Assembly: GCA_963828735.1 (NCBI GenBank)
Contig: CAWHFW010000002.1
Location: 192,001 to 256,000, forward strand
Length of the DNA stretch: 64,000 nucleotides
Direction: 5' to 3'
From: an uncultured Gemmatimonadales bacterium
Lineage (GTDB): Bacteria; Gemmatimonadota; Gemmatimonadetes; Gemmatimonadales; GWC2-71-9
The translations under genes and the position numbers were made by a program. The notes under the pieces were generated by a model. The model did not search any database. It saw nothing but the letters and a program-made list of their open reading frames with translations, and was not told where the DNA came from. Shown here in pieces: positions 33,217 to 51,629 of the stretch (positions are counted from its first letter, which is position 1; every line of letters begins with the position of its first letter).

Positions 33217-33291
33217 TGGGCGAAGAGGGATTCGAACCCCCGACATCCTGCGTGTAAGGCAGGCGCTCTGAACCGGCTGAGCTATTCGCCC
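33217..33291 (-). tRNA. tRNA-Val(TAC), CCA not encoded
   Basis: GGGCGAA acceptor stem, TAGCTCAG, anticodon loop CTTACAC, GGTTCGAATCC T arm. Confidence 0.96.
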
Positions 33292-33368
33292 GGAAGATGC
33301 GCAACCCGTTCCCCAGTCAGGGAGTTTCGCCGCAACGCAGGGAGTGTGCCGTGACGGCCAACACGCGT

Positions 33369-33581: not shown

Positions 33582-33595
33582 AAGCTATGAGGCTA

Positions 33596-34441
33596 CTACG
33601 GTTTTGGAGGCGGGTCAAGTTCAGGCCCTTCCTCAGCTTCGGGAGCGTCGGGCTCCACGACCCAGCCGACGTCCAGCGCGGCCCGGCGGACCCGATCGGC
33701 CCGGCGCCGGCGGTGGACGAGCCAGAGCACCACGAGGCCGACCACCGCCCATCCTCCACCGGCGATCAGCCACTGGCCCAGGGTATACCGATGTCGGAGG
33801 GCCCGGCGCCACGCTTCCTCGAAGCGCCCAAGCGTAAGGCCCGTCGTGGCCAGCACCGCGGTCTCGAAGTCCTCGCCCCGCTCGAGACGCCCGAGCAGGG
33901 GCGCGAGAGTGCCCGTGGGGTTGCGGTGCGCGAGCTCGGTGACGGCGGAGGCCGCGAGGGCATAGGCCGCGTCCGCGGTCGAGGCCGAGCCGCGCAGGGC
34001 CCCGTCGAGCTCGGTCAGGGAGGGGATCGCACCGCGAACGACGGCGAGGTTGAGCTCGAGGCCTCCAAACCGCTCCCACTCGCCTGCGGCCCAGGCGGCG
34101 TAGCCCTCGTCGAACCAGAGGGGCACGCGCACCGGGACTGCCTCGTGGAGCGCGAGGTGGGCCAGCTCGTGCCGCAGGGTGCGGAGGAGATCGTCCTGGT
34201 CGGCGCGGAGGAGGATGGTGCGAGCGCCCGGGAGCGCGATGGCCGCGCCCCACGTCGGGGCGCGGCCGGAGGTGAGCGAGTCGAGCGTCCTCCCGTCGGG
34301 GACGACGATGAGGCGAAGGGGCCCGGGATCCCGCACGCCCAAGCCGGGCCACTCGGCCGGCTGGTCCGCGGCTCGGGCGAGCGCCCGGGCAACCTCGCGC
34401 TGCGCGGGCCACGCCACGACCGTCACCCGCCCGACCTGCAT
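33596..34441 (-). CDS. Membrane-anchored zincin (peptidase MA-like); true start probably ~40-60 bp upstream
   Basis: LRHELAH...PLWFDEGYA gluzincin motif and C-terminal TM helix. An in-frame hydrophobic leader lies upstream of the ATG. Confidence 0.8.
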   Translation of the reverse strand: MQVGRVTVVAWPAQREVARALARAADQPAEWPGLGVRDPGPLRLIVVPDGRTLDSLTSGRAPTWGAAIALPGARTILLRADQDDLLRTLRHELAHLALHEAVPVRVPLWFDEGYAAWAAGEWERFGGLELNLAVVRGAIPSLTELDGALRGSASTADAAYALAASAVTELAHRNPTGTLAPLLGRLERGEDFETAVLATTGLTLGRFEEAWRRALRHRYTLGQWLIAGGGWAVVGLVVLWLVHRRRRADRVRRAALDVGWVVEPDAPEAEEGPELDPPPKP

Positions 34442-34476
34442 GGCGGCGGGCGTGCCCTGGAGCAGGAGCGCGAGCG

Positions 34477-35343
34477 CTAGGAGAGCAGGCTGCGCGGGAC
34501 CTCACCCCCAGCGGCCGCCACGTCGAGCATCTCCTTACAACGCTTGGCCCACGGGTTGAACTTGTTGGCCTTGTGCCCTTCTGCCCAGGTCTGCATGGCT
34601 TCGTCGCGCTGCCCGGCGAACCAGAGCGCGCGGCCGAGCTCGAAGTAGGCCTCGATCAGGTTCGGGCCCAGCTTCAGGGTCTTCCGGAAGAAGGTCTGCG
34701 CGTCCTCGTACATCTCGCGCTCCAGGTAGACGAGCCCCAGGTAGTAGTGCGCGTAGAGCGTCGCCTTGCGATCGTTGTCGAGGCGGATGGCCTTGGACAG
34801 GTGCTCGATCGCCTCGCCGAAGATCCGCTTCTTGAGGCAGATGTACCCGACGTTGATCCGCGCGAGCGCGTTCGCCGGCTCCTTCATCAGCACCCGCGAG
34901 AAGGTGCCGAGGGCATCGTCGTAGTCCTCGTGAAGCATCTGGGCCCAGCCCAGGAGCGATTGCGCCTGGATGTCGCCAGGCGCGAGCGCGAGCGCCTTCT
35001 CGAGGGACTGGATCGCGCCGGCGTAGTCACCGAGGGAGATGAGGCTCCACCCCTTCTCGATATACGTGGACGCACCGAGATGGTCCGCGTGGACCGCCGG
35101 GCGCGCACCGGTGAACTGGGGCGCCGTCGCGGCACCGGTGGCGTTCCCCTGCTTGTACCGCTCCACGAGCCCCCGGATGTCTTCCTTCATCTGTCCCAAG
35201 TCGCCGAGCGCGCCGTCCACCCGCTTGAAGAGCGCGATGATGTCCCGCTTGACGGTCTCACGCTCGGCCCCCTGCGCGGCGCCGAGTCGCAATTCGATCT
35301 CCTGGAACTGACCCCGCAGGGTCGCGATCCACTGCTCGCTCAT
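34477..35343 (-). CDS. Coiled-coil plus TPR protein
   Basis: N-terminal helical region followed by ~5 TPRs (YAHYYLGLVYLE, AYFELGRA). Confidence 0.85.
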   Translation of the reverse strand: MSEQWIATLRGQFQEIELRLGAAQGAERETVKRDIIALFKRVDGALGDLGQMKEDIRGLVERYKQGNATGAATAPQFTGARPAVHADHLGASTYIEKGWSLISLGDYAGAIQSLEKALALAPGDIQAQSLLGWAQMLHEDYDDALGTFSRVLMKEPANALARINVGYICLKKRIFGEAIEHLSKAIRLDNDRKATLYAHYYLGLVYLEREMYEDAQTFFRKTLKLGPNLIEAYFELGRALWFAGQRDEAMQTWAEGHKANKFNPWAKRCKEMLDVAAAGGEVPRSLLS

Positions 35344-35810
35344 GAGGGGCTTTCCATGGCGGTCAACGCCATCCGTTCGGTGGACGACAACAGCTTGCGC
35401 GCGTTCAGGATGATGATGGTCCGCTCGGGTCGCGTCACGATGCCCATGATGTACGCGGCGGCGAGCCCGCTCACCATCGGCCCGGGGGCGGTGATGGTCG
35501 TGCTGTCCACCCGCATGACCTCGCGCACCTCGTCGACCAGGACGCCCACGCGCTGCTCGCCCAGGTCTACGACCATGAGCCGGGTCTCTTCCCGGATCGG
35601 CGCCGCCAGCTCGAACCGCTTTCGCAGGTCCACCACGGGCACCGCGCCGCCTTCGTAGGGGACGACCCCTTCGAGGAAGTCCGGCGCCTTGGGCAACCGC
35701 GCCGGCGCGACGTGCCGCAGGATCCGCTCGACCTGCAGGATGTCGAACGCGAACTCCTGGGTGCCGACCCGGAAGGTCACGACCTGAATGTCGTCGCCCG
35801 TATCGCTCAT
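35340..35810 (-). CDS. cheW: Chemotaxis coupling protein CheW
   Basis: QVVTFRVG, FAFDILQVERI, LPKAPDFLEGV, VPVVDLRKRF, GVLVDEV. Confidence 0.9.
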   Translation of the reverse strand: MSDTGDDIQVVTFRVGTQEFAFDILQVERILRHVAPARLPKAPDFLEGVVPYEGGAVPVVDLRKRFELAAPIREETRLMVVDLGEQRVGVLVDEVREVMRVDSTTITAPGPMVSGLAAAYIMGIVTRPERTIIILNARKLLSSTERMALTAMESPS

Positions 35811-36235
35811 GCGGCCGAGGTCTCCATGAAGCGCGCACCAAGCGCGGCCAGGTCGAGCAGTGGAATCAAGCCGTATTCCGTGCGGGCCACCGCCGCGGCC
35901 CACGGAAGCGCGCTCCCTGACGGCACGGGGAGGCCCCGGTCGTACAGCACCGATTCGGCCGCATCGATCTCGAGGCAGAGCCGGCGTCCGCCCACCTCGA
36001 CCAGCACGCCCATCTCGGTTCGCTCGTTCGGGCAGGCCCGTCCCTCGAGGAGGGCGGCGAGATGCACGAGCGGCAGGATGCGGCCGCGAATGACCGACAC
36101 GCCGCGCACCGCCGGCTCGATCGACGGCACGGGAAACGCCGTCCCGGGATCGAGGACCTCGACGACCTGAGCGAGCGGCAGCCCCACCACTCGCTCGCCC
36201 GCGCGCACCAGCAGGTGGCCGACGCCGCCTCTCAT
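35807..36235 (-). CDS. cheW: CheW-like protein (divergent)
   Basis: [39 protein letters not shown]. Confidence 0.8.
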
Positions 36236-37308
36236 TGGCTTGCCATCCGGTCCAGCTCCTCCCCGACACGCGCCGCGATGCGACCGATCGGCAGAACGTG
36301 GTTTACGCCGCCGGCCTGCACGGCCGCGCTGGGCATGCCGTAGATCGTGGCCGTCTCCCGATCCTGCGCGATTCCGACGCCCCCGGCGTCTCGGATCTCG
36401 CGCAGGCCGTCCGCGCCATCCCGACCCAGCCCGGTGAGGACCACCCCCACCGCGCGGGGCCCGAAGATCCGGGCCACGCTCCGGAACAGCGGGTCGGCGG
36501 CGGGGCGCACGCCCCACACCGCGGGCTCCTGGTCGAGCTCGAGCCGCAAGCCCTCGGTCGAGATGGCGACGCGCATATGATAATCCCCGGGTGCCACGTA
36601 GGCGGTGTCCGCCAGGACCGGAGTCCCGTGCTGCGCCTCGACGACGTTGAGCCGGCTCTGCGAGGCGAGCCGCTCCGCGAGGCTGTGCGTGAACTTGGGC
36701 GGCATGTGCTGCACGATCAGGATCGCCGCGTCCTGTCCGGTCGCGAGCTGCGGTACCAGCTCGGCCAGGGCCCGGGGGCCGCCGGTCGAGGCGGCGATCG
36801 CGGCGCAGCGGCGGGCCCGGCCCGGCAGCGCGAACATCGCCTGCATGTGCGCGCTGCGCGCCGGTCGGGCGAGCACCGGCATCCGAAGGATCTCGGCGCT
36901 CCGCACCGCGCGCAGCGTGCCGATGAGGCGCTCGCGGAACCGGGCGATGGCCTGATCGCTCCGATCCTCCTCCTTCGGGACGAGGTCGACGGCCCCCAGC
37001 TCGAGCGCGCGGATCGCCGCGCCCGTGCCCCGCCCCGCGTACGAGCTCACCACCACGATCGGCCGGGGCGACTCCGACATGATGTAGCCGATCGCGCCGA
37101 GGCCATCGAGATCGGGCATCTCCAGGTCCATCAGGACCAGGTCCGGCTCGAGGTCGTGCACTTTCTGCAGGGCCTCGACGCCGTTCCGTGCCGTTGCCAG
37201 GGCGCGGAAGTCGCCGCTCTCGTCCACGCAGTCGGTCAGCAGCCGCCGGAAGAAGGCGCTGTCGTCCACGATCAGGACGCTCCGCGGCTCAGAGGCTCTG
37301 GATGCCAT
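36232..37308 (-). CDS. cheB: Chemotaxis methylesterase CheB (REC + esterase)
   Basis: [42 protein letters not shown]. Confidence 0.95.
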
Positions 37309-37774
37309 GCGACACCGACGAGACCTCGACCCGCCCGTCGGCCACCCAGAGCTTCACGGTGCGGCCGAAGTCGCCGCCGGTCGCCTCGCCCACGAGCGCT
37401 ACGCCGTGCTGGTAGAGCGTCTGCCGACAGGCGACCAGGTTGCGCTCGCCCATCTGGATCGTGCCCGGCGCGGCGAGCGCCGCGAACATGCTCGCGCCGC
37501 CCACCAGCCGGGCCGTGATTCGGCGGCCGCTCGCGCCCTTCTGGGCCATCAACTCGAGGAGGCGCGGGATCGCGGTCTGCGGGAACTTGGCCGGGTTGTC
37601 GTCCTTGCGGCTGAGCGCGGGCGACGGCAGCAGGACATGCGCGAGGCCGCCGACCTTCGCGACCGGATCGTGGAGCACGACGGCGACGCAGCTGCCGAGT
37701 CCGACCGTGACCAGCACGTCCGGCCCCGAGCCGGCCCTGAGGTCGGCGACGCGGACGATGATCGCGCCGTTCAC
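37289..37774 (-). CDS. cheD: Chemoreceptor glutamine deamidase CheD
   Basis: [34 protein letters not shown]. Confidence 0.92.
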
Positions 37775-38589
37775 GCGGGCCGCCGGTACACGCGCTCGCG
37801 GGGGTCCACGAGCGCCAGCCGGTCGCGGGCCGAGCCGAACAGGGTCTCCACCTTGCCGAGGACCAGGAATCCTCCGGGAAGGAGCGCATCGGCGAACGTC
37901 CGGAACAGCCGCTCCTGCATCGGGCGATCGAAATAGATCACGACATTCCGGCACAAAATGAGGTCGTAGTCGGTGCGAAGCGGCGCCTCGCGGCTCAGAT
38001 CGAGGGGCCGTATGTGGACGCGGCGGCGGACGCGATCGCCGACGCGGAGCGTCTCGCCGCTGTCCTCGAAGTAGCGGCTGACCAGGTCGGACGGCATTTC
38101 GGTCAGGCCCTCGCGGCGGTAGACGGCGTCGCGGGCCCGCTCGAGGCTGGCGCGATCGATATCGGTGGCATCGATCGTCAGCCGGGTGAGCTCGCCCCCG
38201 CGGCCCGCCTTGTCGAGGCAGTCCGCGGCGAGCGCGGCCAGGGTATAGGGCTCTTCCCCCGACGCGCAGCCCGCGCTCCACACGCGCACCTCTACGCGCG
38301 GCCGGTCGAACAGTGTCGGGAGCACCGCGCGCCGGAGCAGATTCCAGGTCTCCGCGTTCCGATAGAACCGGGTGACGTTGATCGTGAGCGCGTCCCGCAG
38401 GTGCTCGTACTCGACCGGCGATCGGCTGAGGAGCGCCCGGTAGTCGTCGTACGTGTGGACGCCGCAGGCCCGCATACGCACCGCGATCCGTCGGCGGATG
38501 CACTTGTCCTTGTACGCCCCGACGGTGAAACCGCTCGTCTGGGCGATCTGTCGCGCGAGCGCCGCGAACGCCGCGTCGTCGGCCGTCAT
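37771..38589 (-). CDS. cheR: Chemoreceptor methyltransferase CheR
   Basis: LTINVTRFYR, WSAGCASGEEPY, ATDID, DLILCRNVVIYF, LGKVE. Confidence 0.95.
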   Translation of the reverse strand: MTADDAAFAALARQIAQTSGFTVGAYKDKCIRRRIAVRMRACGVHTYDDYRALLSRSPVEYEHLRDALTINVTRFYRNAETWNLLRRAVLPTLFDRPRVEVRVWSAGCASGEEPYTLAALAADCLDKAGRGGELTRLTIDATDIDRASLERARDAVYRREGLTEMPSDLVSRYFEDSGETLRVGDRVRRRVHIRPLDLSREAPLRTDYDLILCRNVVIYFDRPMQERLFRTFADALLPGGFLVLGKVETLFGSARDRLALVDPRERVYRRPA

Positions 38590-40202
38590 GGCGCCATGTC
38601 CAGCATCTCGAGGTTCGCCCGCGCCAGCTCGTGCCCGGGATTGAGCTCGGTGGCGCGGCTCCAGCTCTCGCGGGCCAGCGGCTTGTCGCGGCGCTTGTAG
38701 GCGATGTTGCCGAGCTTGAAGTAGAGGTCGTCGCCCAAATCGGGCGCGAGCTTGGCAGCGCGCTCGTAGGCCTCGCGCGCCTCCTCGTAGCGGCCGTTGC
38801 GGTACAGGATGTCGGCCAGGTTCTTGGAGACCTGGGGCAGCGAGGCATCCTCCGCCAGCGCCGCGCGAAGCGCCTTCTCGGCGCCCTGCGCGTCACCCGT
38901 GAGCTCGAGCAGCACCGCGAGGTTGTTCTGCAGGACCGCGCTCGAGGGGTAGGTCTCGACACCGTCGCGCGCGGCCCGGACCGCGCCCGGGTTGTCGTCG
39001 AGCCCGGCGCTCGCGAGCGTGGAGGCCCAGTACCAAAGGGCGGGCGCCGGCTTTCCGCCGAGCAGCTCGAGGGTGCGCGCGAGCCGTCCCTGCGCGACCT
39101 GATGCTCCCCCCGCTTCAGGGCCACGACGCTCCAACCCAGCATGATCCGCGCGTCGTCGCGCGCGCGGCCGGCGGCATCGCCGAAGGCGGCCTCGGCCTC
39201 ATCGAGGCGGCCTAGGCGCTCGAGCGCGTACCCCAGGTTGTGGAGTGCGGCCGGCTTGGCGCCCGCCGCGCCGGCGGCCTGCCGGAAGGCGGTGGCCGCC
39301 TCCTCCCAACGCCCTTGTCGCACGGCGATGAGGCCGAGGTAGAACGGCGCGCTCGCGTCCGCGGGCCGCAGCTCGGCGACCCGGCGGAACTCCCGGAGCG
39401 CCTCGTCCAGCATCGCGGCTTTGTAGAAGGCGATGCCCAGGTTGCGATGCTCGTCCACGCGACCGTCGTTCACCTTCGGCGCGGCCGGGGCCGAGGTGCC
39501 CACCCGGTGCGCGAACCCCGCCGTGATGAGTCCGAAGAGCGCCTTCCCCACCTCGAATTCCACCAACCCGGACTCGTCGATCACCGCCTGGACGTCGCGC
39601 GTCCCGTCGAGCAGCCGGATCAGGCGTCGCTGCTCGGCCGACAGTTCCGGCGCCGACTCCCCGAGGTGAGCGGGGTCCACCGAGAAGATGAGGTCGAAGG
39701 ACGGGATCTTCTTCTCGATCAGGCTCCATTCGTCGACCCGCCGGGCGCCCTCGAGCAGCAGGAACTCGGGGTTGATGCGCACGAGGAAATCCTCGCGCTC
39801 CGGATTGACGCCGGCCTCGAAGTTGAACGTCCCCGACGTCCAGGTGAACAGGTAGTAGACAGCCTCCTCGATCTGGAGGCGGATGTGGCTCTCCAGGTCC
39901 TCCCGGCTCACGAAGCCGAGCTCGACCAGGATCTCGCCCAGCTTGTGCTCGCGGTCGCCCTCCTGGCGATCGATCGCCTGCTGGAGCTGCTCGGCGCTGA
40001 TGCGCCCGCCTCGCAGGAGGATGTCGCCGAGCCGATCGCGGCGGTTCACGATCGCCGCGTAGACGATGTGGCCTTCCTCGAAGTAGATCGTGCCGAAGTT
40101 GTGTCGGTCGGCGAGGGCCAGGCACCCGGTCCGCCGCCCGAGGAACAGCAGCTGGATCACGTCGGGAAGACTCGCTTCCTTGAGGCTGCCCTTGATCGCC
40201 AT
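38586..40202 (-). CDS. DUF4388 + MshEN-like + TPR protein
   Basis: KGSLKEASLPDVIQLL...TG...IYFEEG; RLGDILL...Q and KLGEILV...Q; WTSGTFNF; LLLEGARRVDEW; C-terminal TPRs. Confidence 0.85.
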   Translation of the reverse strand: MAIKGSLKEASLPDVIQLLFLGRRTGCLALADRHNFGTIYFEEGHIVYAAIVNRRDRLGDILLRGGRISAEQLQQAIDRQEGDREHKLGEILVELGFVSREDLESHIRLQIEEAVYYLFTWTSGTFNFEAGVNPEREDFLVRINPEFLLLEGARRVDEWSLIEKKIPSFDLIFSVDPAHLGESAPELSAEQRRLIRLLDGTRDVQAVIDESGLVEFEVGKALFGLITAGFAHRVGTSAPAAPKVNDGRVDEHRNLGIAFYKAAMLDEALREFRRVAELRPADASAPFYLGLIAVRQGRWEEAATAFRQAAGAAGAKPAALHNLGYALERLGRLDEAEAAFGDAAGRARDDARIMLGWSVVALKRGEHQVAQGRLARTLELLGGKPAPALWYWASTLASAGLDDNPGAVRAARDGVETYPSSAVLQNNLAVLLELTGDAQGAEKALRAALAEDASLPQVSKNLADILYRNGRYEEAREAYERAAKLAPDLGDDLYFKLGNIAYKRRDKPLARESWSRATELNPGHELARANLEMLDMAP

Positions 40203-42825: not shown

Positions 42826-42830
42826 GCCGG

Positions 42831-43292: not shown

Positions 43293-43639
43293 CAGCCGAG
43301 CCGGCCGGCGGCGTCGAGCATTTCCAGCCGAGCCAGTCCCAGGTTCGCGTCCGGCCCGACCACGGCGACGAGGACCAGGTCCTCGGGGCCCAGCGCCGCC
43401 AGCACGCTGCCGCCCTCGCCGCGCAGCTGCACGAAGGCCGGCGGGCGGAGTCCGGCGCTCTCCGCGGTGCGCACGAGACGCCCCACAAGGCTCCCGGTGA
43501 GCGCGGCGGCGGCCTGGCCGTCCACCCCCTCCATGAGCTGTTCGGCAACGACCAGCCCGTCACTGGCAGCCACGACGAGCGCGCCGCGCACGCCGCGCAC
43601 GCGGGTGATCCGGTCGAGCGCCGTCTGGGTCGCGGTCAT
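43292..43639 (-). CDS. Roadblock/LC7 protein
   Basis: RGVRGALVVAASDGLVV, AAAL, ANLGLARLEM. Confidence 0.85.
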   Translation of the reverse strand: MTATQTALDRITRVRGVRGALVVAASDGLVVAEQLMEGVDGQAAAALTGSLVGRLVRTAESAGLRPPAFVQLRGEGGSVLAALGPEDLVLVAVVGPDANLGLARLEMLDAAGRLG

Positions 43640-44487
43640 GCCTGCGCCTCGAGCCACGCTCGCGCGGCCCGCGCCGCCCGCTCGGCGAGGAGCGTGACCC
43701 TGCCCATCGGGAGCGCGGCCTCGCGTGCGGCCAGCACGACCGTGTCCGCGCTGGCGTGGGTGAGCACGACGTGGCCGTCCGGGGATTCGACGGCGATCGT
43801 GTGCCAGCTCCCGAGGCCCAGCAGGCGGGTCGCGCGCGCGGCCTCGCGGGACAGACCCGCGAGCTGTGCCGCCACCCGGTCTCCCGCGGGATCGCCGGGG
43901 TCCTCGGCCAGGCGACCACCGAGGCGAAGCCCGTTGGCGTCGACCAGCAGGAGGCCCTCCTCCCCATCGTCCAGGTCCTCGAACGGGCCCGCGACCGTGT
44001 CGTCCACCGGGGCGACGGGCGCGAGGGGCTGTTCCACGACCGGAGCCGGTGTCGCGGCTGGCGCCGGGGCCGTGCGCGCCGCGTCCCGGAGCGCGGGTCC
44101 GAGGCGGGCGATCGCCTGGCGGATCGAGGGGTCGTCCGGGTCCACGTCCAGCGCGCGCTGCAGGTGTTCGAGCGCGGCCGTCGTCTCGCCGGCGCGGAAA
44201 TAGAGGAAGGCGATTCCCTTGAGTGCGCTGGTCCGCATCGGGTCGAGCTGCAGCGCCGATGCCCAGGCGTCGAATGCGCCCGCGAGGTCGCCCTGATCGC
44301 TCAGGATCCGCGCCATCAGGTCGTGAGCGTCGGCCAGCCCCGGGTAACGGGTCAGCCCTCCACGTGCCACCTTGTGCGCCGCGTCGAGCTGGCCGCGGCC
44401 GCGCAGCGCTTCGGCGAGCTCCAGGAACGCGAGGCTCCCCGGCTCTTCCGCGATGCGAGCGGTCAGACGGCGGATGTCGTCAGTCAC
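43636..44487 (-). CDS. TPR-roadblock fusion protein
   Basis: N-terminal TPRs (PGSLAFLELAEALR), Pro/Ala linker, C-terminal roadblock (LLVDANGL...PMGRV). Confidence 0.8.
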   Translation of the reverse strand: MTDDIRRLTARIAEEPGSLAFLELAEALRGRGQLDAAHKVARGGLTRYPGLADAHDLMARILSDQGDLAGAFDAWASALQLDPMRTSALKGIAFLYFRAGETTAALEHLQRALDVDPDDPSIRQAIARLGPALRDAARTAPAPAATPAPVVEQPLAPVAPVDDTVAGPFEDLDDGEEGLLLVDANGLRLGGRLAEDPGDPAGDRVAAQLAGLSREAARATRLLGLGSWHTIAVESPDGHVVLTHASADTVVLAAREAALPMGRVTLLAERAARAARAWLEAQA

Positions 44488-45529
44488 GGAACCGCTCCAG
44501 CTCCCTCATGATCGTCTCCGCCGACTGACACAGCCGTGCGACGCTCGGGCTTTCCGCCTCTTCGCCCGGTGTGCGGTCGCCCAGCCGATTCCAGGACGCC
44601 CACAGCTCGAGCGCCTCGCCGAAGCGCCCGATGGCGGCGTAGCACAACCCCAGCAGGCGGCGCGCCTCGGGCATGAGGGGGTCGCTCCGCAGCACTTCCT
44701 CGAGGGCGCCGGCCGCGAGGTCGTACTGGCCTCCGGCCAGCGCCTCCCGCGCGGGCACCAGGAGCGCGGCCAGATCGCGTCCCGGCTCCGCTTCCTGGCC
44801 GGGGTGCGCGGGATCATCGAGTACCACGATGCCTGCGTTGGTGAGCCCGTATACCGTTCGCGCCACTTCGAACTCCGAGCGGCCCAGCATCTCGGCCAGC
44901 GAGTGCAGATCGCGGGCCCCGTCGACCGCCGCGAGCACTTCCCACTCGAAGGGAACGAGATCGAGCGTCTCGCTGCCCTGGGACTCGGGCGCGGGCAGTC
45001 GCGGGACCAGGCGGAGGTGCGAGACCTTGGATCCGATGCGCGACCACTCGTCGATGCGACGCGCCGCTTCCATCAGCAGCGCCTCGGTCGGGAATCGGAC
45101 CGGCGCCTCGACCGCCGCGTGACACGAGGCGCCCTCCTCGAAGCGGAAGTAGCCCTCCGACCAGCGCAGCAGCTCGAACACCGCTTCCTCGATCTGGGCC
45201 TTGAGCTGGCGGTCGAGCTCGCGACGGGAGATGACACCCAGGCTCACGAGGATGTCGCCGAGGCGGCGGTCGTCGCCGCTCGTCTGCATGCTGCGCGCGC
45301 GATCGAGGTCGGCGCCGGTGAGCTTTCCGGAGCGGACCAGGCGGGCGCCCAGCGGTTGGGGGTCGCTGCCGACGGCCGCGGCGACGACACCGCCTCGGTC
45401 GAAGCACACGGTGCCCGCCGTCTGGCGCAGCTCCGAGGTGACGCGCAGGACCCCGCTCTTCCGGCCGAGGTCGAGGAGCTGGAAGACGTCCTGAATGTGC
45501 AGGTCCTTGAGGGGCCCTTCGAGCGCCAT
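44480..45529 (-). CDS. DUF4388 + MshEN-like protein with C-terminal TPR
   Basis: MALEGPLKDLHIQDVFQLL...KSG, RLGDILVSLG, WSEGYFRF, LLMEAARRIDEW. Paralogue of 38586-40202. Confidence 0.85.
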   Translation of the reverse strand: MALEGPLKDLHIQDVFQLLDLGRKSGVLRVTSELRQTAGTVCFDRGGVVAAAVGSDPQPLGARLVRSGKLTGADLDRARSMQTSGDDRRLGDILVSLGVISRRELDRQLKAQIEEAVFELLRWSEGYFRFEEGASCHAAVEAPVRFPTEALLMEAARRIDEWSRIGSKVSHLRLVPRLPAPESQGSETLDLVPFEWEVLAAVDGARDLHSLAEMLGRSEFEVARTVYGLTNAGIVVLDDPAHPGQEAEPGRDLAALLVPAREALAGGQYDLAAGALEEVLRSDPLMPEARRLLGLCYAAIGRFGEALELWASWNRLGDRTPGEEAESPSVARLCQSAETIMRELERFRD

Positions 45530-45532
45530 CGC

Positions 45533-48220
45533 TCAGCCCACCGACGCGGCGAAGATGTGCTGGAGGTCGCGCGCGGAGCGCGCGCGCGTGCGCGCCTGCG
45601 CGGCGTAGGGGCCGGCGGGATCGAGCTGGACGACGCGCTCCCAGGCCTGAACGGCCTGATCGAACTGTCGCTGCCGCGCGAGCGCGCCGCCCTCGTAGTA
45701 GAGCGCCCCGGCGTGCTCGGGATCGAACCGGAGCACCCGCTCGAAGGCCTCCAGTGCCTGCACCGTGCGACCATCCTCCAGCAGTGCGCGGCCCAGCGCC
45801 GTGAGCGCCTCCAGCTCGTACGGGTCGGCCTCCAGTAGGCGGACCAGCACTCCGATGGCGGCGCGCGGCGTCTCGGTGCGGCGGAGGAGGTCCGCCAGGG
45901 CGATCGCCGCGGCGCTGTAGGTCGGCAGGAGATCGAGCGCCCGCTCGTATGCCGCCCGGGCCGCCGCCCAGTTCCCGCGCTCTTCCTCGATCCCGCCGAG
46001 CTCGAACCACACCCGCACGAGCGACGGATCGAGCTGGAGGGCCGCATTGAAGGCGGCGAGCGCAGCCGAGCGATCGCCCAGGCGGGCGGAGACCTGCGCC
46101 TGGAGGTGAAAGAGATCCGGCCGCCCGGGCTCGAGCGCCTGCGCCTCGCGGATGCAGTCCAGCGCGCCCAGCGCATCGCTCACCGCCAGACGGACGCGGG
46201 CCCGCGCAACCAGCACCTCCACGTCGCCGCGTACGCGGCGGGCCAGCTCGTCCGCCAGGGGCGCCGCGTCGCCGGCCCAGCCGAGGGCCAGGAGCGCGCG
46301 GATCTCACCGAGTGTGGCGTCGGGATCGTCGGGAGTCGCGGTCCGCGCGGCGCGGTAACGCTCGAGCGCCTCGCCGTACAGGCCGCGCTTGGCGAAGATG
46401 TCGCCGAGGAGGACCGCGGTCGCGCCCTGCGGCGCGCCGCGCGCCGCGGCCCGGCTCAGCTCGGCGGACGCGAGGTCGAGGAGTCCCTTGGCGATGTAGT
46501 CGCGCGCGAGGTCGAGCGCGTCTCCCACCGCGCCGTTACCATTGGCCGCGGCCACCGTCGGGGTGAGCTCGGCGAACAGCTGATCAAGCGCCGGCGGGTC
46601 GAACGCGAACTCCCCAGCGAGCTGGTCGCCGCCCACCTCCGCCGTCAGCTCGGGAGCGATCGCGATCGTGGGGTCTTCGTACTGCAGGTCGATGGTGAGC
46701 GAGAACTTCTGCGGCACGTACAGCGGCTCAAGCTCGAGCGCGCGGCGGGTCTCGCGCAGCGCGCCGTCGAAGTCGCCGAGCTGGCTCAGGACGAAGCTCA
46801 GGTTGTAGTGGGCGCCTGCCATCCCGGGGTCGGCGTCCACCGCGCGGCCGAACGCATTCCGTGCGTCCTCGAACCGGCGAAGCTCCATGAGCACGAGCCC
46901 GACGCCGTTCCAGGCGACGGCGCTCGCGCTCTGTTCCGAGAGGGCGCCCTGGTACTCGTCGAGGGCCTGGCGGAGCTGCCGGCGCTGGAGGAACAGGAGC
47001 CCGAGATTGAGCCGCGCGGCCAGCAGCGGCCGCTCGCCATCGAGCGCGCGGCGGAACGCGGCGATCGCGGCGTCGGCCGGCTCGCCCGCGCGCACGACGC
47101 CCAGGTTGTTCCAGGCGAGCTGGTAGCCGGGATCCACGGCCACGGCCCGCTCGTAGGAGGCGATGGCCTCGGCGCGCCGGCCGGCCTGGTGGAGGCAGAC
47201 CCCGCGCTCGTTCCACAGCTTGGGCGAGTCGGCATGCTCGCGGACGAGCGCCTCGTACAGCTCGAGCGCCGCGGGCAGCTCGCGCCGGAGCAGGCGCACC
47301 TCCGCCATCGCCTGCAGGGTCAGGCGGCGGTCTTCTCCCGCCTCGAGGGCTTGCCCGTACTCGCGCAGCGCCTCCTCGTGCAGGCCCTTCTGGCGAAAGG
47401 CGAGTCCGAGGTTGTAGTGGGCCAGCGCGCCGCCTTCGACGATTTGCGGACGCGCTGTCTGCCGGGCCGTCTGTCCCGCCGCCGCGCCCGACGGCCCATA
47501 GCGCTCCAGCGCGAGATTGGCCTGGGCCCGCGCCAGCGTCGGGTTCAGCTTGATGGCGTGCTTGGTCGCCTCGCGGGCCTCCTCGTGGCGGCCGATGTCG
47601 CCGTAGACGAAGGCAAGGAGATAGTGCGCCTCGGCGTAGTCGGGGTTCCGCGCGATGGCCTCGCGCAGGGCCTCGAGCGCCGGCTCGTTCAGGCCGCGGT
47701 TGTAGAGCACCTCGCCGTAGTAGAAGCGGGCCACCGCGCTGGCGGGGTCCTGCGAGCAGGCGCGCGCGAGCCAGTCCGTGGCGGTGTCGAGGTTGCCGCG
47801 GGCCTTCTCGGCCAGGCCGAGCTGCAGCATGGCGGGGACGTCCGAGGGCTGCCAGGCGAGCAGCGCCTGGAACTCCGCGATGGCGTCTGCGTGGCGGCCG
47901 AGGGCGGCGTACGCGCGCCCGAGTTCCCAACGGGCGTCGCGATCCTCGGGGTGCCGGCGGACGCGCTCCCGGAGCTCGGTGATGCGGCGGTCGTAATGGC
48001 CGCTCTCACGGTAGGCGATGTCGAGATTGCTTTGCGCGACCTGCATGCGCGGGTCGAGCTCGAGCGCGCGCACGAACTCGGCGATCGCGTCCTCGATCAG
48101 CCCCTTCTGATAGTAGAGGACGCCCAGGTTGTTGTGGGCGCCCGCGTCGGAGGGATCGATCCGGCGGGCAAAGGAGCGCAGGACGGCGAGATCGCGCTCC
48201 GACAGCACGGGCCCGGGCAT
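45533..48220 (-). CDS. Large multi-TPR scaffold protein
   Basis: Many repeats of the AHNNLG/AHYNLG/AWNNLG type; no signal peptide. Confidence 0.9.
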   Translation of the reverse strand: MPGPVLSERDLAVLRSFARRIDPSDAGAHNNLGVLYYQKGLIEDAIAEFVRALELDPRMQVAQSNLDIAYRESGHYDRRITELRERVRRHPEDRDARWELGRAYAALGRHADAIAEFQALLAWQPSDVPAMLQLGLAEKARGNLDTATDWLARACSQDPASAVARFYYGEVLYNRGLNEPALEALREAIARNPDYAEAHYLLAFVYGDIGRHEEAREATKHAIKLNPTLARAQANLALERYGPSGAAAGQTARQTARPQIVEGGALAHYNLGLAFRQKGLHEEALREYGQALEAGEDRRLTLQAMAEVRLLRRELPAALELYEALVREHADSPKLWNERGVCLHQAGRRAEAIASYERAVAVDPGYQLAWNNLGVVRAGEPADAAIAAFRRALDGERPLLAARLNLGLLFLQRRQLRQALDEYQGALSEQSASAVAWNGVGLVLMELRRFEDARNAFGRAVDADPGMAGAHYNLSFVLSQLGDFDGALRETRRALELEPLYVPQKFSLTIDLQYEDPTIAIAPELTAEVGGDQLAGEFAFDPPALDQLFAELTPTVAAANGNGAVGDALDLARDYIAKGLLDLASAELSRAAARGAPQGATAVLLGDIFAKRGLYGEALERYRAARTATPDDPDATLGEIRALLALGWAGDAAPLADELARRVRGDVEVLVARARVRLAVSDALGALDCIREAQALEPGRPDLFHLQAQVSARLGDRSAALAAFNAALQLDPSLVRVWFELGGIEEERGNWAAARAAYERALDLLPTYSAAAIALADLLRRTETPRAAIGVLVRLLEADPYELEALTALGRALLEDGRTVQALEAFERVLRFDPEHAGALYYEGGALARQRQFDQAVQAWERVVQLDPAGPYAAQARTRARSARDLQHIFAASVG

Positions 48221-48224
48221 CGGA

Positions 48225-48845
48225 TCAGGTCAGGCGGATGGCGTCGAAGATGGCCCGAAGCGACGGCGTGTCGGGCAGGAGCAGGAAATGGCCGCGCCAG
48301 GGCTCGGTCGTGTCCTCCACCCGGAACGAGGTCTCGACGCAGAAGACGAAGTCGCGATCGTGCCCGAAGTTGAGGTACGTCGTCGTGAGCACGGCCGCGC
48401 TCAGGTCGACGACCAGACTGGGCACCGAGGGGACCAGCATCATGCCCATGAAGTCGCTGAGCGCGTTCATGTACGCGCTCGCGAGGATGTTGCCGGCCTC
48501 CTTGAGGCCCGACTGCTCCATGGGGCCGAACTCGCCGGTCGTCCCGGCACTCCGCCTGAACAGTATATCACAGAGCGCTCGGGCCGACCCTTCGGGGAAC
48601 ATCACCAGCGTGCGACCGGTCAGGTCGCCCATCATGTGCATGAGCACGGCCGCGACCACCTCGTCGGGCGAGCCGACCAGGTCGGTGACCTCCTCGAGCG
48701 GCCGCACGTTGACCTCCGGCACGGCGATCATGATCGTGCGGTTGGTCATCTGCGACAACGCGGTCGCGGCGTGTCCGGCGCCGATGTTGGCGACCTCGCG
48801 CAGCGCGTCCAGCTGCAGCTCCTTCAGGCCCCGCACGTCTTCCAT
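48225..48845 (-). CDS. cheC: CheY-P phosphatase CheC
   Basis: DALREVANIGAGHAATALS and SGLKEAGNIL (two E-x-x-N active sites), PSVP. Confidence 0.92.
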   Translation of the reverse strand: MEDVRGLKELQLDALREVANIGAGHAATALSQMTNRTIMIAVPEVNVRPLEEVTDLVGSPDEVVAAVLMHMMGDLTGRTLVMFPEGSARALCDILFRRSAGTTGEFGPMEQSGLKEAGNILASAYMNALSDFMGMMLVPSVPSLVVDLSAAVLTTTYLNFGHDRDFVFCVETSFRVEDTTEPWRGHFLLLPDTPSLRAIFDAIRLT

Positions 48846-48855
48846 GAGTGTCTCC

Positions 48856-50733
48856 CTACAGCAGTGCCGCAGCGTCGAGAACGAGCGCGGGTGCGCCATC
48901 CGCCAGAATCGTCGCCCCACCGACGTACGGCGGCATGCCGCGCGGCGCGTCGAAGGGGGCGACCACGATGTCCTGCTGACCGAGCAGGGCGTCCACCACG
49001 AGCGCCGTGCGCCGCTCGCCGACCTCGAGGATCACCGTCGGCCTGCGTGGCGGCGCGGGCCGCGCGCGACTGGCGACGAGATCCCGCAGGTGCACGGTCG
49101 GAATCACCTGCTCGCGGACGACCAGCGCCTCGCGGCTCCGGAGCGCCGTCACGGCGCGCGGGTCGAACTCCACCGTCTCGGCCACGTAGGCGAGCGGGAC
49201 CGCGTAGCGCTCGCCGCCCGCGTCGGCCAGCAGGGCCCGCACGATCGCCAGCGTGAGCGGCACCCGAATGAGGAAGGTGGTGCCCTTCCCCACCTCGGAC
49301 CGGATCTCGAGCGTGCCGCCGAGCTGGCGGACGCGGGTCATCGCCACGTCGACCCCCACGCCCCGGCCGGAGACGCCACTCACGGCCTGGGCGGTGCTGA
49401 AGCCCGGCCGGGCAATCACGCGGAGCAAGGCATCGTCGGTGAGCCCGTCACCGTCGGCGGCGCTGCCGCCTTCCTCGCGTCGCGCCTTGGCGAGGATGGC
49501 CGCGCGGTCGATGCCGCGGCCGTCGTCGCTGACCCGCAGGACCACGCTGTTCCGCTCGCGCGACGCGGCGAGAAGGATGCGTCCTTCGGCCGGCTTTCCC
49601 GCCTTCGCCCTCGCCTCGGCCGGCTCGATCCCGTGGTCGGCGGCGTTGCGGATCAGGTGCAGCAGCGGATCGCCGATCTCGTCCAGGATCGAGCGGTCGA
49701 GCTCGATCTCCTCGCCCTCGACGTCGAAGCGGATGCGCTTGCCGAGATCGCGCGCCAGGTCGCGCACCAGCCGGGGGAAGCGCTCGAACACCTCGCCCAC
49801 CGGCGTCATTCGCGACGCGATCACCTCGGTCTGCATGCCGGACACGAGACGCGAGATCCGATCGCTGAGCTCGGCCAGCCCCCCGTCGTCGGACTGGGCG
49901 GCCATGACGTTCAGCCGGTTCTTGGCCACGACCAGCTCCCCCACCTGCTTCATCAGGCGATCGAGCCGCCCGAGGTCGACGCGGATCTGACGCTGGCGGC
50001 CCGGGGCGGCGGCGTCGAAGGCAACCGGCTCCTCGAACCGCACCGACTCGACTTCGCCGGCCGTCCGGAGCGCGGCGGCCAGTTCGTCATCGGTCGCGCG
50101 GGACTCGATCCGGAAGGCGAGCCGTCCGTCGAACTCCTCGCGCTCGAGCTGCACCAGCGGGGGGCGCACGGCCGTCACCAGACCCAGAGCCTCGGCCCGC
50201 CGCACCGCGAGCACCGCGCGGGCGCCCCGCATCACCGCATCGGGGCGGATCACCATCTGGACTGAGCGGCCGCGTGGCGCGTCCGTCGCCCGGCGGCGGG
50301 GCGGAGTCGCCGCCTCCGACGCGGGAGTGGCTCCTTCCACCGCCCCGCTCGACGGCTTCCCGCTCGCCATCTCGTCCAGGGCCGCGCAGAGGGCGGGGTC
50401 CGCCACCATCTCGCGACCGGCGGCGGCGCCTTCGACCGCCTCGCCCAGGGCATCGACCGCGCGGAACAACAGCTGAAACGTCGTGGCGTCCGACGTCACC
50501 TGGCCGTGGCGAAGCGCGTCGAGGAGGCTCTCCATGCGGTGAGCCAGCTCCGCCACGCCGGTGAACCCCATGGTGGCGCCCATGCCCTTGATCGTGTGAA
50601 TCGATCGGAAGAGCCCGCCGACGGGGTCCGTGGCGCCGGGGTCGCGCTCCCAGCTGAGCAGCAGCTGATTACAGCTGCTCAGGTGCTCCCGGCTCTCGGC
50701 CAGGAAGAGCGCGGCGTACTTGGAGACATCCAC
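48856..50733 (-). CDS. cheA: Chemotaxis histidine kinase CheA
   Basis: FRSIHTIKGM Hpt, IRVD..RLD, HLIRNAADHG, DDGRG, GFST, SGRGVGVD, PLTLAI CheW domain. Confidence 0.97.
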   Translation of the reverse strand: MDVSKYAALFLAESREHLSSCNQLLLSWERDPGATDPVGGLFRSIHTIKGMGATMGFTGVAELAHRMESLLDALRHGQVTSDATTFQLLFRAVDALGEAVEGAAAGREMVADPALCAALDEMASGKPSSGAVEGATPASEAATPPRRRATDAPRGRSVQMVIRPDAVMRGARAVLAVRRAEALGLVTAVRPPLVQLEREEFDGRLAFRIESRATDDELAAALRTAGEVESVRFEEPVAFDAAAPGRQRQIRVDLGRLDRLMKQVGELVVAKNRLNVMAAQSDDGGLAELSDRISRLVSGMQTEVIASRMTPVGEVFERFPRLVRDLARDLGKRIRFDVEGEEIELDRSILDEIGDPLLHLIRNAADHGIEPAEARAKAGKPAEGRILLAASRERNSVVLRVSDDGRGIDRAAILAKARREEGGSAADGDGLTDDALLRVIARPGFSTAQAVSGVSGRGVGVDVAMTRVRQLGGTLEIRSEVGKGTTFLIRVPLTLAIVRALLADAGGERYAVPLAYVAETVEFDPRAVTALRSREALVVREQVIPTVHLRDLVASRARPAPPRRPTVILEVGERRTALVVDALLGQQDIVVAPFDAPRGMPPYVGGATILADGAPALVLDAAALL

Positions 50734-50736
50734 GCG

Positions 50737-51099
50737 TCAGCCGAGAACGCGCTGGACCGCCTCGAGCACACGCGAGGGCTGAAATGGCTTCACCACGAAG
50801 TCCTTCGCGCCCGCCTGAATCGCCTCCACGACCAGCGCCTGCTGCCCCATCGCGCTGCACATCAGGATCTTGGCCTCGGGATCGGTCTTGCAGATCTCGC
50901 GGACCGCCTCGATGCCGCCCATGTCAGGCATCACGATGTCCATGGTGACGAGGTCCGGCTTGAGCGAGCGGTACTTCTCGACCGCCTGCGAGCCCGATTC
51001 GGCCTCGCCCACGACTTCGAACCCGGCTTGCGTCAGGATGTCGCTGATCATCGTGCGCATGAAGATGGCGTCATCGCAGACGAGCACTGTGTGGCTCAC
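50737..51099 (-). CDS. cheY: Response regulator CheY
   Basis: DDAIFMR, DLVTMDIVMP, CSAMGQ, GAKDFVVKPF (Firmicutes/Thermotoga-type CheY). Confidence 0.93.
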   Translation of the reverse strand: MSHTVLVCDDAIFMRTMISDILTQAGFEVVGEAESGSQAVEKYRSLKPDLVTMDIVMPDMGGIEAVREICKTDPEAKILMCSAMGQQALVVEAIQAGAKDFVVKPFQPSRVLEAVQRVLG

Positions 51100-51123
51100 G
51101 GACGGCCTCCGGATCGAGTCGAA

Positions 51124-51190
51124 TCGTGGGTCTGGGGTCGTGAGTCGTGGCGCTGGTGTGAGTCTCCCGACTCACGACCCGAGCCCACGA
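51124..51190. repeat. Intergenic inverted repeat built from 7-mer units (REP-like hairpin)
   Basis: GGGTCGTGAGTCG (51135-51147) pairs with CGACTCACGACCC (51168-51180). Outer arms TCGTGGG / CCCACGA. Confidence 0.75.
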
Positions 51191-51197
51191 CCGCCTG

Positions 51198-51629
51198 TCA
51201 AATGATCGGCGCGACCAGCGCGTCGATGTCGAGCAGGATGAAGTGCTGGCCGTCCCGGATGCCGACCGCCTTCACCAGCCGGGGATCGATGCCCGGAAGG
51301 TCGGCACGTTCGGCCACCATGTGCGCCGGGACCTCGAGGAAGTCGACCACCTGGCCGACCCCCAACCCGTACCGCCGGCCGCCCACCTCCACGACCACGA
51401 TGGCACCCTCGTCCTCGCTCCGGCGCGACTGCTGGAGGAGAATGTGACCATCGAACACGGTGAGCAGGGTGCCCCGGACGTTGACCAAGCCTTCGATCGC
51501 CTCGGCGACCCCCGGGATCCGGGTGGCCTCCAGGCGCGGCAGGATCTCCCGCACGATCCCTGCCGGGGCCGCGCAAATAAGCGCACCGATGCGAAAAATG
51601 ACGGCGTGGAGCGTCGGGGAGTTAGCCAT
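51198..51629 (-). CDS. cheW: CheW protein
   Basis: VIFRIG, VREIL, TRIPGV..AIEGLVNVRG, ILLDIDAL. Confidence 0.88.
   Translation of the reverse strand: MANSPTLHAVIFRIGALICAAPAGIVREILPRLEATRIPGVAEAIEGLVNVRGTLLTVFDGHILLQQSRRSEDEGAIVVVEVGGRRYGLGVGQVVDFLEVPAHMVAERADLPGIDPRLVKAVGIRDGQHFILLDIDALVAPII

Follow-up and report, generated by a model that had tools for sequence, protein, structure and literature searches.

What does a chemosensory gene cluster do when it is split in two by a Ras-like polarity switch and by a doubled form of the ATPase module of the replication initiator DnaA? The question is raised by a window of 64,000 nucleotides (positions 192,001 to 256,000 of contig CAWHFW010000002.1, assembly GCA_963828735.1) from an uncultured soil bacterium of the order Gemmatimonadales, whose genome assembly of 4.78 Mb in 7 contigs is 97.5% complete. 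An initial annotation, made from the DNA letters, had described about 18 co-oriented genes and proposed that this hybrid of Che, MglA/MglB, PATAN (DUF4388) and DnaA-clade proteins may direct polarity, surface motility or asymmetric division rather than flagellar taxis. We find that the cluster is a conserved feature of four families of the phylum and independent of flagella, and that it contains a genuine MglA, a probable MglB and a protein built of two DnaA-type AAA+ modules, which we call DnaA2x. To the reading that it forms an operon in which a Che phosphorelay controls a dedicated MglA/MglB switch together with PATAN-tetratricopeptide repeat (TPR) adaptors, and most likely places the activity of type IV pili (or of another polar machine), we give about an even chance of being right.

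Because the window has about 70% G+C, genes were called by third-position GC content and then checked with Pfam. Between positions 33596 and 51629 this yields 19 genes, head to tail and all on the minus strand, in the order cheW-cheY-cheA-cheC; TPR, PATAN-TPR, TPR-Roadblock, Roadblock, MglB-like, mglA, DnaA2x, PATAN-TPR; cheR-cheD-cheB-cheW-cheW-TPR-peptidase (Table 1). The two PATAN-TPR proteins are called PATAN1 and PATAN2 in this order, and two TPR proteins are named TPR895 and TPR288 by their length. An inner block of 9.6 kb (48220-38586) splits the che genes and leaves the adaptation genes on its far side, and most junctions overlap or are separated by 10 nt or less, so that the initial annotation was correct in every item of its description of order, orientation, split and packing. 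Overlaps of 4 nt (ATGA or GTGA) occur at six junctions (mglA/DnaA2x, PATAN2/cheR, cheR/cheD, cheB/second cheW, second/third cheW and third cheW/TPR288), overlaps of 1 nt at two and of 8-22 nt at four, and gaps of 3-10 nt at five; cheC and the TPR895 gene are 4 nt apart. The only larger gaps are 98 nt between cheW and cheY and 35 nt between the TPR288 and peptidase genes, and 445 nt follow the last gene. At the upstream edge the longest open reading frame (ORF) of the first cheW, starting at 51743, would overlap the rluD-like gene by 122 nt (51622-51743), and the ATG at 51629 was used; tblastn alignments of the cheW and rluD products reach into this overlap even in relatives at 35-40% identity, which could reflect either a real long overlap or an off-frame echo of similarity.

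Transcription was approached in two ways, both of which give only hints. A scan of positions 33000-52800 with sigma-70 and intrinsic-terminator rules, which may not hold in this phylum, found no promoter-like site and no terminator-like site on the minus strand, with one terminator-like site on the plus strand against 4.5 expected. In each of eleven soil RNA runs, 5-10% of the words sampled from the region are present, and short RNA contigs (~170-510 nt, 95-100% alike) from four runs touch every one of the 30 bins in three of these runs and 27 bins in the other, a few of them spanning junctions that include cheC/TPR895 and PATAN2/cheR. Since RNA libraries can contain DNA, and contigs of this kind cannot show a single transcript, these data are proof of neither expression nor co-transcription.

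The arrangement is conserved well beyond this genome. When the window's proteins were compared by tblastn with 15 loci of 15 relatives in three families (14 loci complete, one cut by a contig end), the order rluD, cheW-cheY-cheA-cheC-TPR-PATAN-TPRRoadblock, mglA-DnaA2x-PATAN-TPR-cheR-cheD-cheB and TPR288 was found in all 15, with identities of 84-96% for CheY, 69-93% for MglA and 41-70% for DnaA2x. A fourth family (f4, locus L033) has the full gene set, and the interleaved order thus persists over four families and down to protein identities of 35-50%. Because the same order recurs in every one of the 15 loci and again in the fourth family, the arrangement is not due to chance. The variable members in the 14 complete loci are the second and third cheW (present in 7 and 11, respectively), cheR (13) and the peptidase gene (8), and the small Roadblock genes went undetected by tblastn in one or two of the remoter loci. 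DnaA2x itself is found at E<=1e-60 in 38 of 41 relatives and in 195 of 301 genomes of the phylum with a completeness of 90% or more, with 121/125 in family f1, 54/71 in f2, 3/3 in f3, 5/6 in f4, 11/49 in f7 and 0/46 in the other seven families. These phylum tallies include one genome flagged as unpublished (G181), on which alone no claim rests.

The chemosensory part of the cluster is complete apart from a methyl-accepting chemotaxis protein (MCP), consisting of three cheW genes, cheY, cheA, cheC, cheD, cheR and cheB. Its CheA carries the Hpt, dimerisation, kinase and CheW-like domains, and it, CheW and CheY all match Pfam above the curated cut-offs. Receptors are encoded elsewhere, the genome having four MCPsignal matches, three of them orphans and one in a second che cluster that also holds the other of the genome's two CheAs. 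This second cluster (contig C5, ~1231900-1240200; L018:3898-12235) comprises cheY, a gene for a 154-aa protein with no Pfam match, a cheA without a P2 domain, cheW, an MCP gene with a HAMP domain, a gene for a 660-aa HEAT-repeat protein, cheR and cheB, and its HEAT-repeat partner is reminiscent of the Che7 system of Myxococcus.

The GTPase enclosed by the che genes is an MglA by every feature that we compared. The protein of 200 aa matches over its full length (residues 1-196 aligned) the MglA structures of Myxococcus xanthus (5ymx_A/6h17, 5.5e-73) and Thermus thermophilus (3t12_A, 6.2e-65), and in the alignment its switch II sequence TVPGQ is intact, with Thr in place of the usual Asp, a feature described as Thr78 of MglA (PMC3000849). 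It thereby falls into group 1 of the MglA family, members of which occur in Gemmatimonadetes (Wuichet and Sogaard-Andersen 2014; PMC4316618). Directly upstream, at a distance of 5 nt, lies a gene for a Roadblock-type protein that matches MglB structures at 2e-09 and that is, from its sequence, the predicted GTPase-activating protein (GAP) of the adjacent MglA; for the Roadblock protein beside it, the match to Roadblock structures is at 2e-04. With these the cluster encodes an MglB-like and two further Roadblock proteins, three TPR proteins and two PATAN-TPR proteins, among which TPR895 is a candidate scaffold or MglA effector. The cluster's MglA is a paralog: a canonical second mglB-mglA pair lies outside the window (contig C2, 439835-440949), its MglA being 49% identical to the cluster copy, and genomes without the cluster (G099, G112, G074) have only a pair of the canonical type.

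Chemosensory control of an MglA polarity module is of a known kind. In M. xanthus the Frz pathway and MglA/MglB, with RomR/RomX, MglC, RomY and SgmX, likewise combine a Che-type pathway, a Ras-like MglA, a Roadblock-type GAP, extra Roadblock regulators and a large TPR protein, and the output in the accounts available is the polarity of surface motility, not flagella. There, however, the che and mgl genes occupy separate loci, and the mglA genes of Myxococcus and Bdellovibrio do not lie near those of their partners (PMC4316618), whereas here, in a different phylum, che and mgl genes are interleaved in one block around a second, cluster-specific MglA paralog. The block differs further in having PATAN-TPR proteins and a double DnaA-type ATPase built in and in lacking a RomR/FrzZ-like receiver protein, of the type that in Myxococcus (FrzX/FrzZ, RomR) acts in its phosphorylated form on MglB/MglA at the poles, its only receiver domains being those of CheY and CheB (a genome-wide search for RomR, RomX and FrzZ was not made). 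Neighbourhoods of mglA and PATAN genes have occasionally appeared in print, among them that of Gemmatimonas aurantiaca GAU_1409, listed as "PATAN>MglA>-PATAN>" (PMC4316618 and its supplement), and PATAN proteins figure as uncharacterised candidates in M. xanthus (PMC11580455). Beyond that linkage the arrangement is, as the initial annotation had supposed, apparently uncharacterised: in a search that left most subscription journals outside its reach, we found no published description of the cluster, of DnaA2x, or of a DnaA-like ATPase with MglA, PATAN or MshEN, and within the literature searched DnaA2x is an undescribed component.

Both PATAN-TPR proteins match the PATAN family (DUF4388, PF14332) at 3.5e-31 and 3.2e-38, and in the structural model the domain carries an alpha-helical insertion. 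This insertion resembles MshEN, the c-di-GMP receptor domain of the ATPases MshE, PilB and PilF, which is a four-helix unit of two copies of the motif RLGxx(L/V/I)(L/V/I)xxG(L/V/I)(L/V/I)xxxxLxxxLxxQ with a 5-residue spacer (PMC5013675). The strict 24-residue motif occurs just twice in the six-frame translation of the genome (9.56 million residues), once in PilB and once in PATAN1 (residues 89-112), where a degenerate copy precedes it. In PATAN2 one copy (57-80) deviates at two positions and is separated by 6 residues from another (87-110), which satisfies the relaxed motif of the same paper; among 16 orthologues there is hardly any variation at the key Arg, Gly, Leu and Gln positions. In the model of the PATAN2 N-terminal domain (pLDDT 77), a four-helix insert at 58-119 with the MshEN_N fold interrupts the beta strands. 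In the PDB this model finds MshE with bound c-di-GMP as its best match (5htl_B, E 0.014), on which the helical insert (residues 57-110) superposes with an rmsd of 1.0 A over 56 columns at 39% identity; nine of the ten top matches are c-di-GMP domains of MshE or PilF GSPII-B (rmsd 1.0-2.1 A, 33-40% identity, 55-60 columns). Unlike MshEN proper, the insert lies within a PATAN domain and not at the N-terminus of a secretion ATPase. The possible c-di-GMP sensors of the initial annotation are therefore backed at the level of motif and fold, though not by the Pfam family, and we regard the PATAN inserts, on the strength of the model, as plausible candidate sensors. The portions available of a paper on the ComFB receptor mention PATAN fusions and no MshEN-like insert (PMC12448109).

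DnaA2x consists of two modules of the DnaA domain III type, 43% and 34% identical to domain III of the genome's own DnaA and 38% identical to each other, and the genome encodes a separate dnaA of 460 aa. Pfam finds neither DnaA_N nor Bac_DnaA_C in DnaA2x, both of which are present in the true DnaAs recovered by the same search (P0243, P0239). In an AlphaFold model (pLDDT 85, pTM 0.50) the first AAA+ module (1-238) is followed by a disordered linker (239-280), a four-helix domain (283-387) that is confidently modelled, conserved and specific to the family, the second AAA+ module (395-628), a disordered stretch (630-657) and a short tail. Structures of DnaA domain III are the closest to it in fold, led by that of Bacillus subtilis (8bv3_A, TM 0.93, 45% identity) and including 8btg, 2z4r, 1l8q, 3r8f and 2hcb. 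Across an alignment of 25 family members (33-68% identical to the window's protein), the Walker A Lys and first Walker B Asp are invariant in both modules and box VII and sensor II mostly retain their arginines in both, while the sensor I region of module 2 has diverged. The tail carries a conserved motif at 654-673, with W662 in 25 of 25 members, K657 in 24 and E656 and P663 in 23 each. All the tandem members that carry a name are from Gemmatimonadota.

DnaA2x and PATAN2 were chosen for complex prediction because the pair stays together even where Che and Mgl genes are missing, as described below, and because their stop and start codons overlap. Residues 281-674 of DnaA2x and the whole of PATAN2, both entered as alignments, gave a score of 0.70 (runs 0.65, 0.70 and 0.72), and the best of three controls scored 0.00; the mark for this score is reached by 116 of 157 solved complexes and by 2 of 215 mismatched pairs. 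Contacts agreed between runs by at least 65%, with a partner pLDDT of at least 83. The model places the DnaA2x tail (651-673) in the TPR groove of PATAN2 (residues ~263-493) and a surface of AAA+ module 2 against the PATAN2 N-terminus, so that the tail is predicted to dock in the groove.

Where might such a complex act? The clues of context point to type IV pili. In Synechocystis a PATAN domain on its own binds the N-terminal part of PilB1 as well as PilC and reverses phototaxis, and MglA/MglB homologues are often encoded near PATAN proteins (bioRxiv 10.1101/2021.06.11.447907). The cyanobacterial Tax/Pix systems, with their PatA-type (PATAN-REC) regulators, resemble the present cluster in joining a Che-like pathway to a PATAN output, which there binds both PilB1 and PilC and determines the direction in which pili move the cell (bioRxiv 10.1101/2021.06.11.447907); they differ from it in that PATAN is here fused to TPR arrays and not to a receiver, so that phosphorylation cannot act on it directly, and in that MglA/MglB and DnaA2x are added. 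A second clue comes from proteins that fuse DnaA-type domains to other modules, drawn from the best 150 representatives matched by DnaA2x. Two of these (1990 and 1876 aa) have an N-terminal MshEN and two Bac_DnaA domains, and two others, P0270 (1371 aa, source name Candidatus Sumerlaeota) and P0260 (876 aa), have long TPR arrays with a C-terminal Bac_DnaA domain. The latter are the fusion counterpart of the predicted contact between the DnaA2x tail and a TPR array.

The 1990-aa protein is encoded in a pilus cluster on contig JAUXFG010000024.1 of a Candidatus Fermentibacteria metagenome-assembled genome (MAG; L022 3397-25730, genome G327). The order begins with pilD, MshEN-Bac_DnaA (983 aa), MshEN (436 aa), MshEN-Bac_DnaA (409 aa) and a 1993-aa ORF that corresponds to the 1990-aa protein, and continues with genes for a TonB_C protein, pilB, an unknown gene, pilT, pilC, a PilS-like kinase and pilT. 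A PilB-type MshEN domain is thus encoded by four consecutive genes, in three of which it is joined to ATPase domains of the Bac_DnaA family, and the genome has 11 further DnaA-type AAA+ matches besides a true DnaA. No MglA was matched in this MAG, whose completeness is unknown, at E<=1e-10, and the cluster therefore offers no parallel for MglA. In a quick maximum-likelihood tree of 44 DnaA domain III segments the N-halves (support 96) and the C-halves of DnaA2x form clades. DnaA-type motors without DNA-binding domains recur, then, beside pilus motors and TPR arrays.

Taking these results together, the circuit that we favour would run as follows. The three orphan MCPs of the genome would feed CheA through the three CheW proteins, CheA would pass its signal to CheY, and CheC, CheD, CheR and CheB would tune it. 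Phosphorylated CheY would then work on the Roadblock/MglB-MglA switch in the way known from Frz in Myxococcus, and MglA-GTP together with the TPR proteins would mark a pole. With the PATAN-TPR adaptors, they would choose the pole of the active pilus motor, the PATAN domains contacting PilB/PilC as in Synechocystis and the MshEN-like inserts adding an input from c-di-GMP. DnaA2x, held by its C-terminal tail on PATAN2, would serve as an ATP-dependent assembly or switch element. We put forward more tentatively, as a possibility that we think somewhat doubtful, that the regulation of type IV pili has recruited the motor domain of the initiator on more than one occasion: in the Gemmatimonadota DnaA2x would be clipped by its tail to a c-di-GMP-sensing PATAN-TPR protein and would integrate phosphorylated CheY, MglA and the second messenger at one pole, and in Fermentibacteria an ATPase of the same kind is fused to a PilB-type N-domain.

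The same Che-to-MglA circuit could have an output other than pili, such as exopolysaccharide, a gliding or type IX secretion-linked machine, or polar adhesion, an alternative that we consider unlikely but that has facts on its side. By composition alone, the first che block (CheW, CheY, CheA and a CheC-type phosphatase) has the same set as DifC, DifD, DifE and DifG of the M. xanthus Dif system, which with DifA regulates exopolysaccharide downstream of PilB and whose function is tied to type IV pili and PilB (PMC5544727); Dif, however, includes an MCP of its own, and no MglA, PATAN or DnaA-type genes lie within it. MglA of Myxococcus, in the accounts available, also controls gliding. In the genome under study, pilB (MshEN+T2SSE), pilT and pilC adjoin a gene for a 2008-aa SprA_N (type IX secretion-like) protein (L019; contig C5, ~1149900-1168000). 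Beside pilBTC there is also an ATP-binding cassette (ABC) system that runs ABC_tran, ABC2_membrane+ABC_transp_aux and DUF4340 and that resembles the gliding genes gldA/gldF/gldG of Bacteroidota. Against these stand the published direct link of PATAN to PilB and PilC (bioRxiv 10.1101/2021.06.11.447907) and the fusion and context clues, which consist of PilB-type domains and a pilus cluster.

The Che operon, the mgl/Roadblock unit and a DnaA2x-PATAN-peptidase unit might also have no joint function and simply share a stable site, and here the reduced loci of more distant relatives are instructive. In family f7 (G271, G246) the same site, here too preceded by ileS-rluD, holds only DnaA2x (679 and 667 aa, each with two Bac_DnaA stretches), PATAN-TPR and the peptidase gene, without che, mglA or Roadblock genes, and the family's only MglA is a paralog of 54-55% identity encoded elsewhere. 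Genus g7 (G031, L029), which belongs to the same taxonomic order as the genome under study, has at this site cheW-cheY-cheA-cheC-TPR-PATAN-Roadblocks-mglA followed directly by PATAN-TPR-cheR-cheB, without DnaA2x, cheD, the two extra cheW genes, TPR288 or the peptidase gene, and in genus g55 the complete 4.64-Mb genome G095 lacks the Roadblock genes and cheR and has a shorter DnaA2x, a reduced locus that fits the Gemmatimonas aurantiaca entry (PMC4316618 supplement) quoted above. Since f7 keeps the pair without che, mglA and Roadblock genes, DnaA2x and PATAN-TPR are a unit of their own, probably an older and separable one, which the Che-Mgl genes enclose in four families; the hybrid block that the initial annotation had seen as one module is thus conserved as a hybrid but is not obligate as a module. 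A mere sharing of the site nevertheless seems improbable to us, as the inner block splits the che genes with the adaptation genes on its far side, the borders between units are tight (a gap of 4 nt at cheC/TPR895 and an overlap of 4 nt at PATAN2/cheR), the interleaved order has survived over four families at 35-50% protein identity, no internal terminator-like site was found and, as a weaker point, contigs from RNA libraries bridge both borders. In G271 the DnaA2x-PATAN-peptidase unit is followed by a gene for an NtrC-like sigma-54 activator (REC-AAA-HTH), and DivIVA and YggS-like genes lie upstream of ileS (L031, 4485-6464 and 14828-15751); a CheY-like receiver stretch was found by tblastn in G246 at the position that matches the NtrC-like gene.

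A third possibility couples the cluster to replication or the cell cycle, with DnaA2x acting on DnaA in the manner of Hda, by co-oligomerisation or by stimulating ATP hydrolysis, and the signals gating initiation or division. Hda is a single DnaA-like AAA+ module with an N-terminal clamp-binding motif that acts on DnaA-ATP. Each half of DnaA2x is like it a DnaA-type AAA+ with lid, and the identity to the genome's own domain III, the conserved Walker A/B, box VII and sensor II residues of both modules and the fold matches to DnaA, which include the single-stranded DNA-bound structure 3r8f, would all suit such a role, as would the position of the block just upstream of a 600-aa TPR gene and the division and cell-wall (dcw) cluster rsmH-ftsI-murE-murF-mraY-ftsW, a position kept in relatives. 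DnaA2x is unlike DnaA and Hda, however, in its tandem modules (674 aa), its lack of domains I/II and IV, its family-specific helical domain and conserved tail, and its setting among signalling and not replication genes. Its conserved partners are MglA and PATAN-TPR, its tail is predicted to dock on PATAN-TPR, in other genomes domains of this kind occur joined to TPR arrays or, within a pilus cluster, to PilB-type N-domains, the whole of genus g7 has the Che-Mgl core without DnaA2x, and no clamp-binding-type motif was seen by eye at its N-terminus (no search for the motif was made). We rate a replication role as quite improbable, and nothing that we found favours the cell-cycle or asymmetric-division direction that the initial annotation had offered.

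That the cluster is an ordinary flagellar chemotaxis system with passenger genes is, despite its full Che core with a P2-bearing CheA, CheC and CheD and despite the flagella of some relatives, extremely improbable, since the genome has no FliG_C match, 97 of the 125 f1 genomes carry DnaA2x without FliG_C, three relatives without flagella have no CheA but that of the cluster, relatives with flagella have further CheAs, and family f10 has FliG_C in 9/9 genomes but DnaA2x in 0/9. In f1, cross-tabulated by hand, 24 further genomes have both, one has FliG_C only and three have neither; over the phylum FliG_C was found in 74/301 genomes (25/125 in f1, 36/71 in f2, 0/3 in f3). The three relatives with a single CheA and no FliG_C (G004, G026, G033) are 92-100% complete, and in the flagellated g55 genomes there are three CheAs, of which one is encoded 30-44 kb away from fliG. 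A flagellar role is thus unlikely, as had been predicted. For type IV pili, phylogenetic profiling could not discriminate, because 290 of 301 genomes have the PilB-type MshEN family.

Several findings weigh against the reading that a Che phosphorelay controls MglA and the PATAN-TPR adaptors so as to place pilus activity. The best clues of context to type IV pili are the PilB-type N-domain fusions and the published binding of PATAN to PilB, but no result ties the cluster directly to pili in this genome, where pilBTC lies on another contig, and with so near-universal a marker profiling cannot set cluster-bearing genomes apart. The block lacks a RomR/FrzZ-like output regulator and leaves CheY without an assigned target, the evidence on transcripts comes from short contigs of soil metatranscriptomes and is weak, and the separability of the units means that DnaA2x may act apart from Che and MglA. 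As to c-di-GMP, 14 of 16 PATAN2 orthologues satisfy the relaxed motif but just one the strict form, Pfam MshEN (PF05157) does not match the PATAN inserts at E<=1, and the shortness of the match leaves Foldseek with weak E-values (0.014-0.44). The score for the DnaA2x-PATAN2 complex expresses the confidence of a model and is not a measurement. The N-halves of DnaA2x, the MshEN-fused domains of Fermentibacteria, the TPR-fused domains and true DnaA form a polytomy in the tree of 44 segments, for which reason we claim no single non-replicative clade and allow that the Fermentibacteria case may be parallel and not homologous. Finally, the DnaA-like ATP-site residues and the position upstream of the dcw cluster make a link to replication or division possible.

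Table 1. Genes of the cluster in the order of transcription, with positions in the 64,000-nt window and the matches on which their assignment rests
Feature	Position	Strand	Evidence and remarks
cheW (first coupling protein)	51198..51629	-	Pfam CheW 5.6e-23; ATG at 51629, 8-nt overlap with rluD stop
cheY, single-domain response regulator	50737..51099	-	Response_reg 9.4e-32; 84-96% identity in 15 relatives
cheA	48856..50733	-	Hpt, P2, H-kinase_dim, HATPase_c, CheW (Pfam); one of two CheAs in genome
cheC-type phosphatase	48225..48845	-	CheC 8.9e-22, CheX 2.8e-07; conserved part from ~residue 26 of longest ORF
895-aa TPR protein (TPR895)	45533..48220	-	TPR families, e.g. TPR_2 5.9e-72; kept in 15/15 loci
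PATAN (DUF4388)-TPR protein 1 (PATAN1)	44480..45529	-	DUF4388 3.5e-31
TPR-Roadblock fusion	43636..44487	-	TPR_14 1.8e-12, Robl_LC7 2.5e-07
Roadblock/LC7 protein	43292..43657	-	Robl_LC7 3.8e-08; PDB 7f8m_A 2e-04
MglB-like Roadblock protein	42831..43292	-	phmmer against PDB: MglB 6h5b_B 2.2e-09, 6izw_B, 1j3w_A
MglA, Ras-like GTPase, cluster-specific paralog	42223..42825	-	5.5e-73 to M. xanthus MglA 5ymx/6h17
DnaA2x	40202..42226	-	Bac_DnaA 7.4e-92, two stretches
PATAN (DUF4388)-TPR protein 2 (PATAN2)	38586..40202	-	DUF4388 3.2e-38 plus TPR
cheR methyltransferase	37771..38589	-	CheR 2.7e-48, CheR_N 8.9e-12
cheD	37289..37774	-	CheD 7.8e-25; GTG at 37774, 4-nt overlap with cheR stop
cheB methylesterase with receiver domain	36232..37308	-	CheB_methylest 4.8e-63, Response_reg 7.7e-20
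cheW (second)	35807..36235	-	CheW 1.1e-17; in 7/14 complete relatives' loci
cheW (third)	35340..35810	-	CheW 2.6e-32; in 11/14 complete relatives' loci
288-aa TPR protein (TPR288)	34477..35343	-	TPR_2 1.1e-26; in 14/14 complete loci
Peptidase_MA_2 (zincin-like) protein	33596..34441	-	Peptidase_MA_2 1.3e-11

Upstream of the cluster lie ileS, a dksA-like gene, lspA and rluD, and the site between ileS-lspA-rluD and the dcw cluster is kept in relatives. Farther upstream on the same strand (57537-63907 of the window) there are housekeeping genes, namely those for a YggS-like protein (Ala_racemase_N), an 864-aa TMEM260-like glycosyltransferase and a CdaA-type diadenylate cyclase (DAC) together with folP and ftsH.

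To our knowledge, Myxococcus is the only case in which chemosensory control of polarity through MglA has been worked out in detail; its components are dispersed, and genetics was needed to connect Frz with MglA. Here an abundant soil phylum, different from that of Myxococcus, writes the whole circuit into what appears to be one operon, and the operon names candidate partners: a further pair of Roadblock proteins, scaffolds of the TPR type, PATAN-TPR adaptors that probably have a site for c-di-GMP, and an ATPase derived from DnaA. Versions of the cluster are present in cultured Gemmatimonadales (the complete g55 genome with its reduced version and G. aurantiaca with GAU_1409), which makes the case a testable one. 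If the proposed circuit is true, an AAA+ motor of the initiator clade can serve outside replication.

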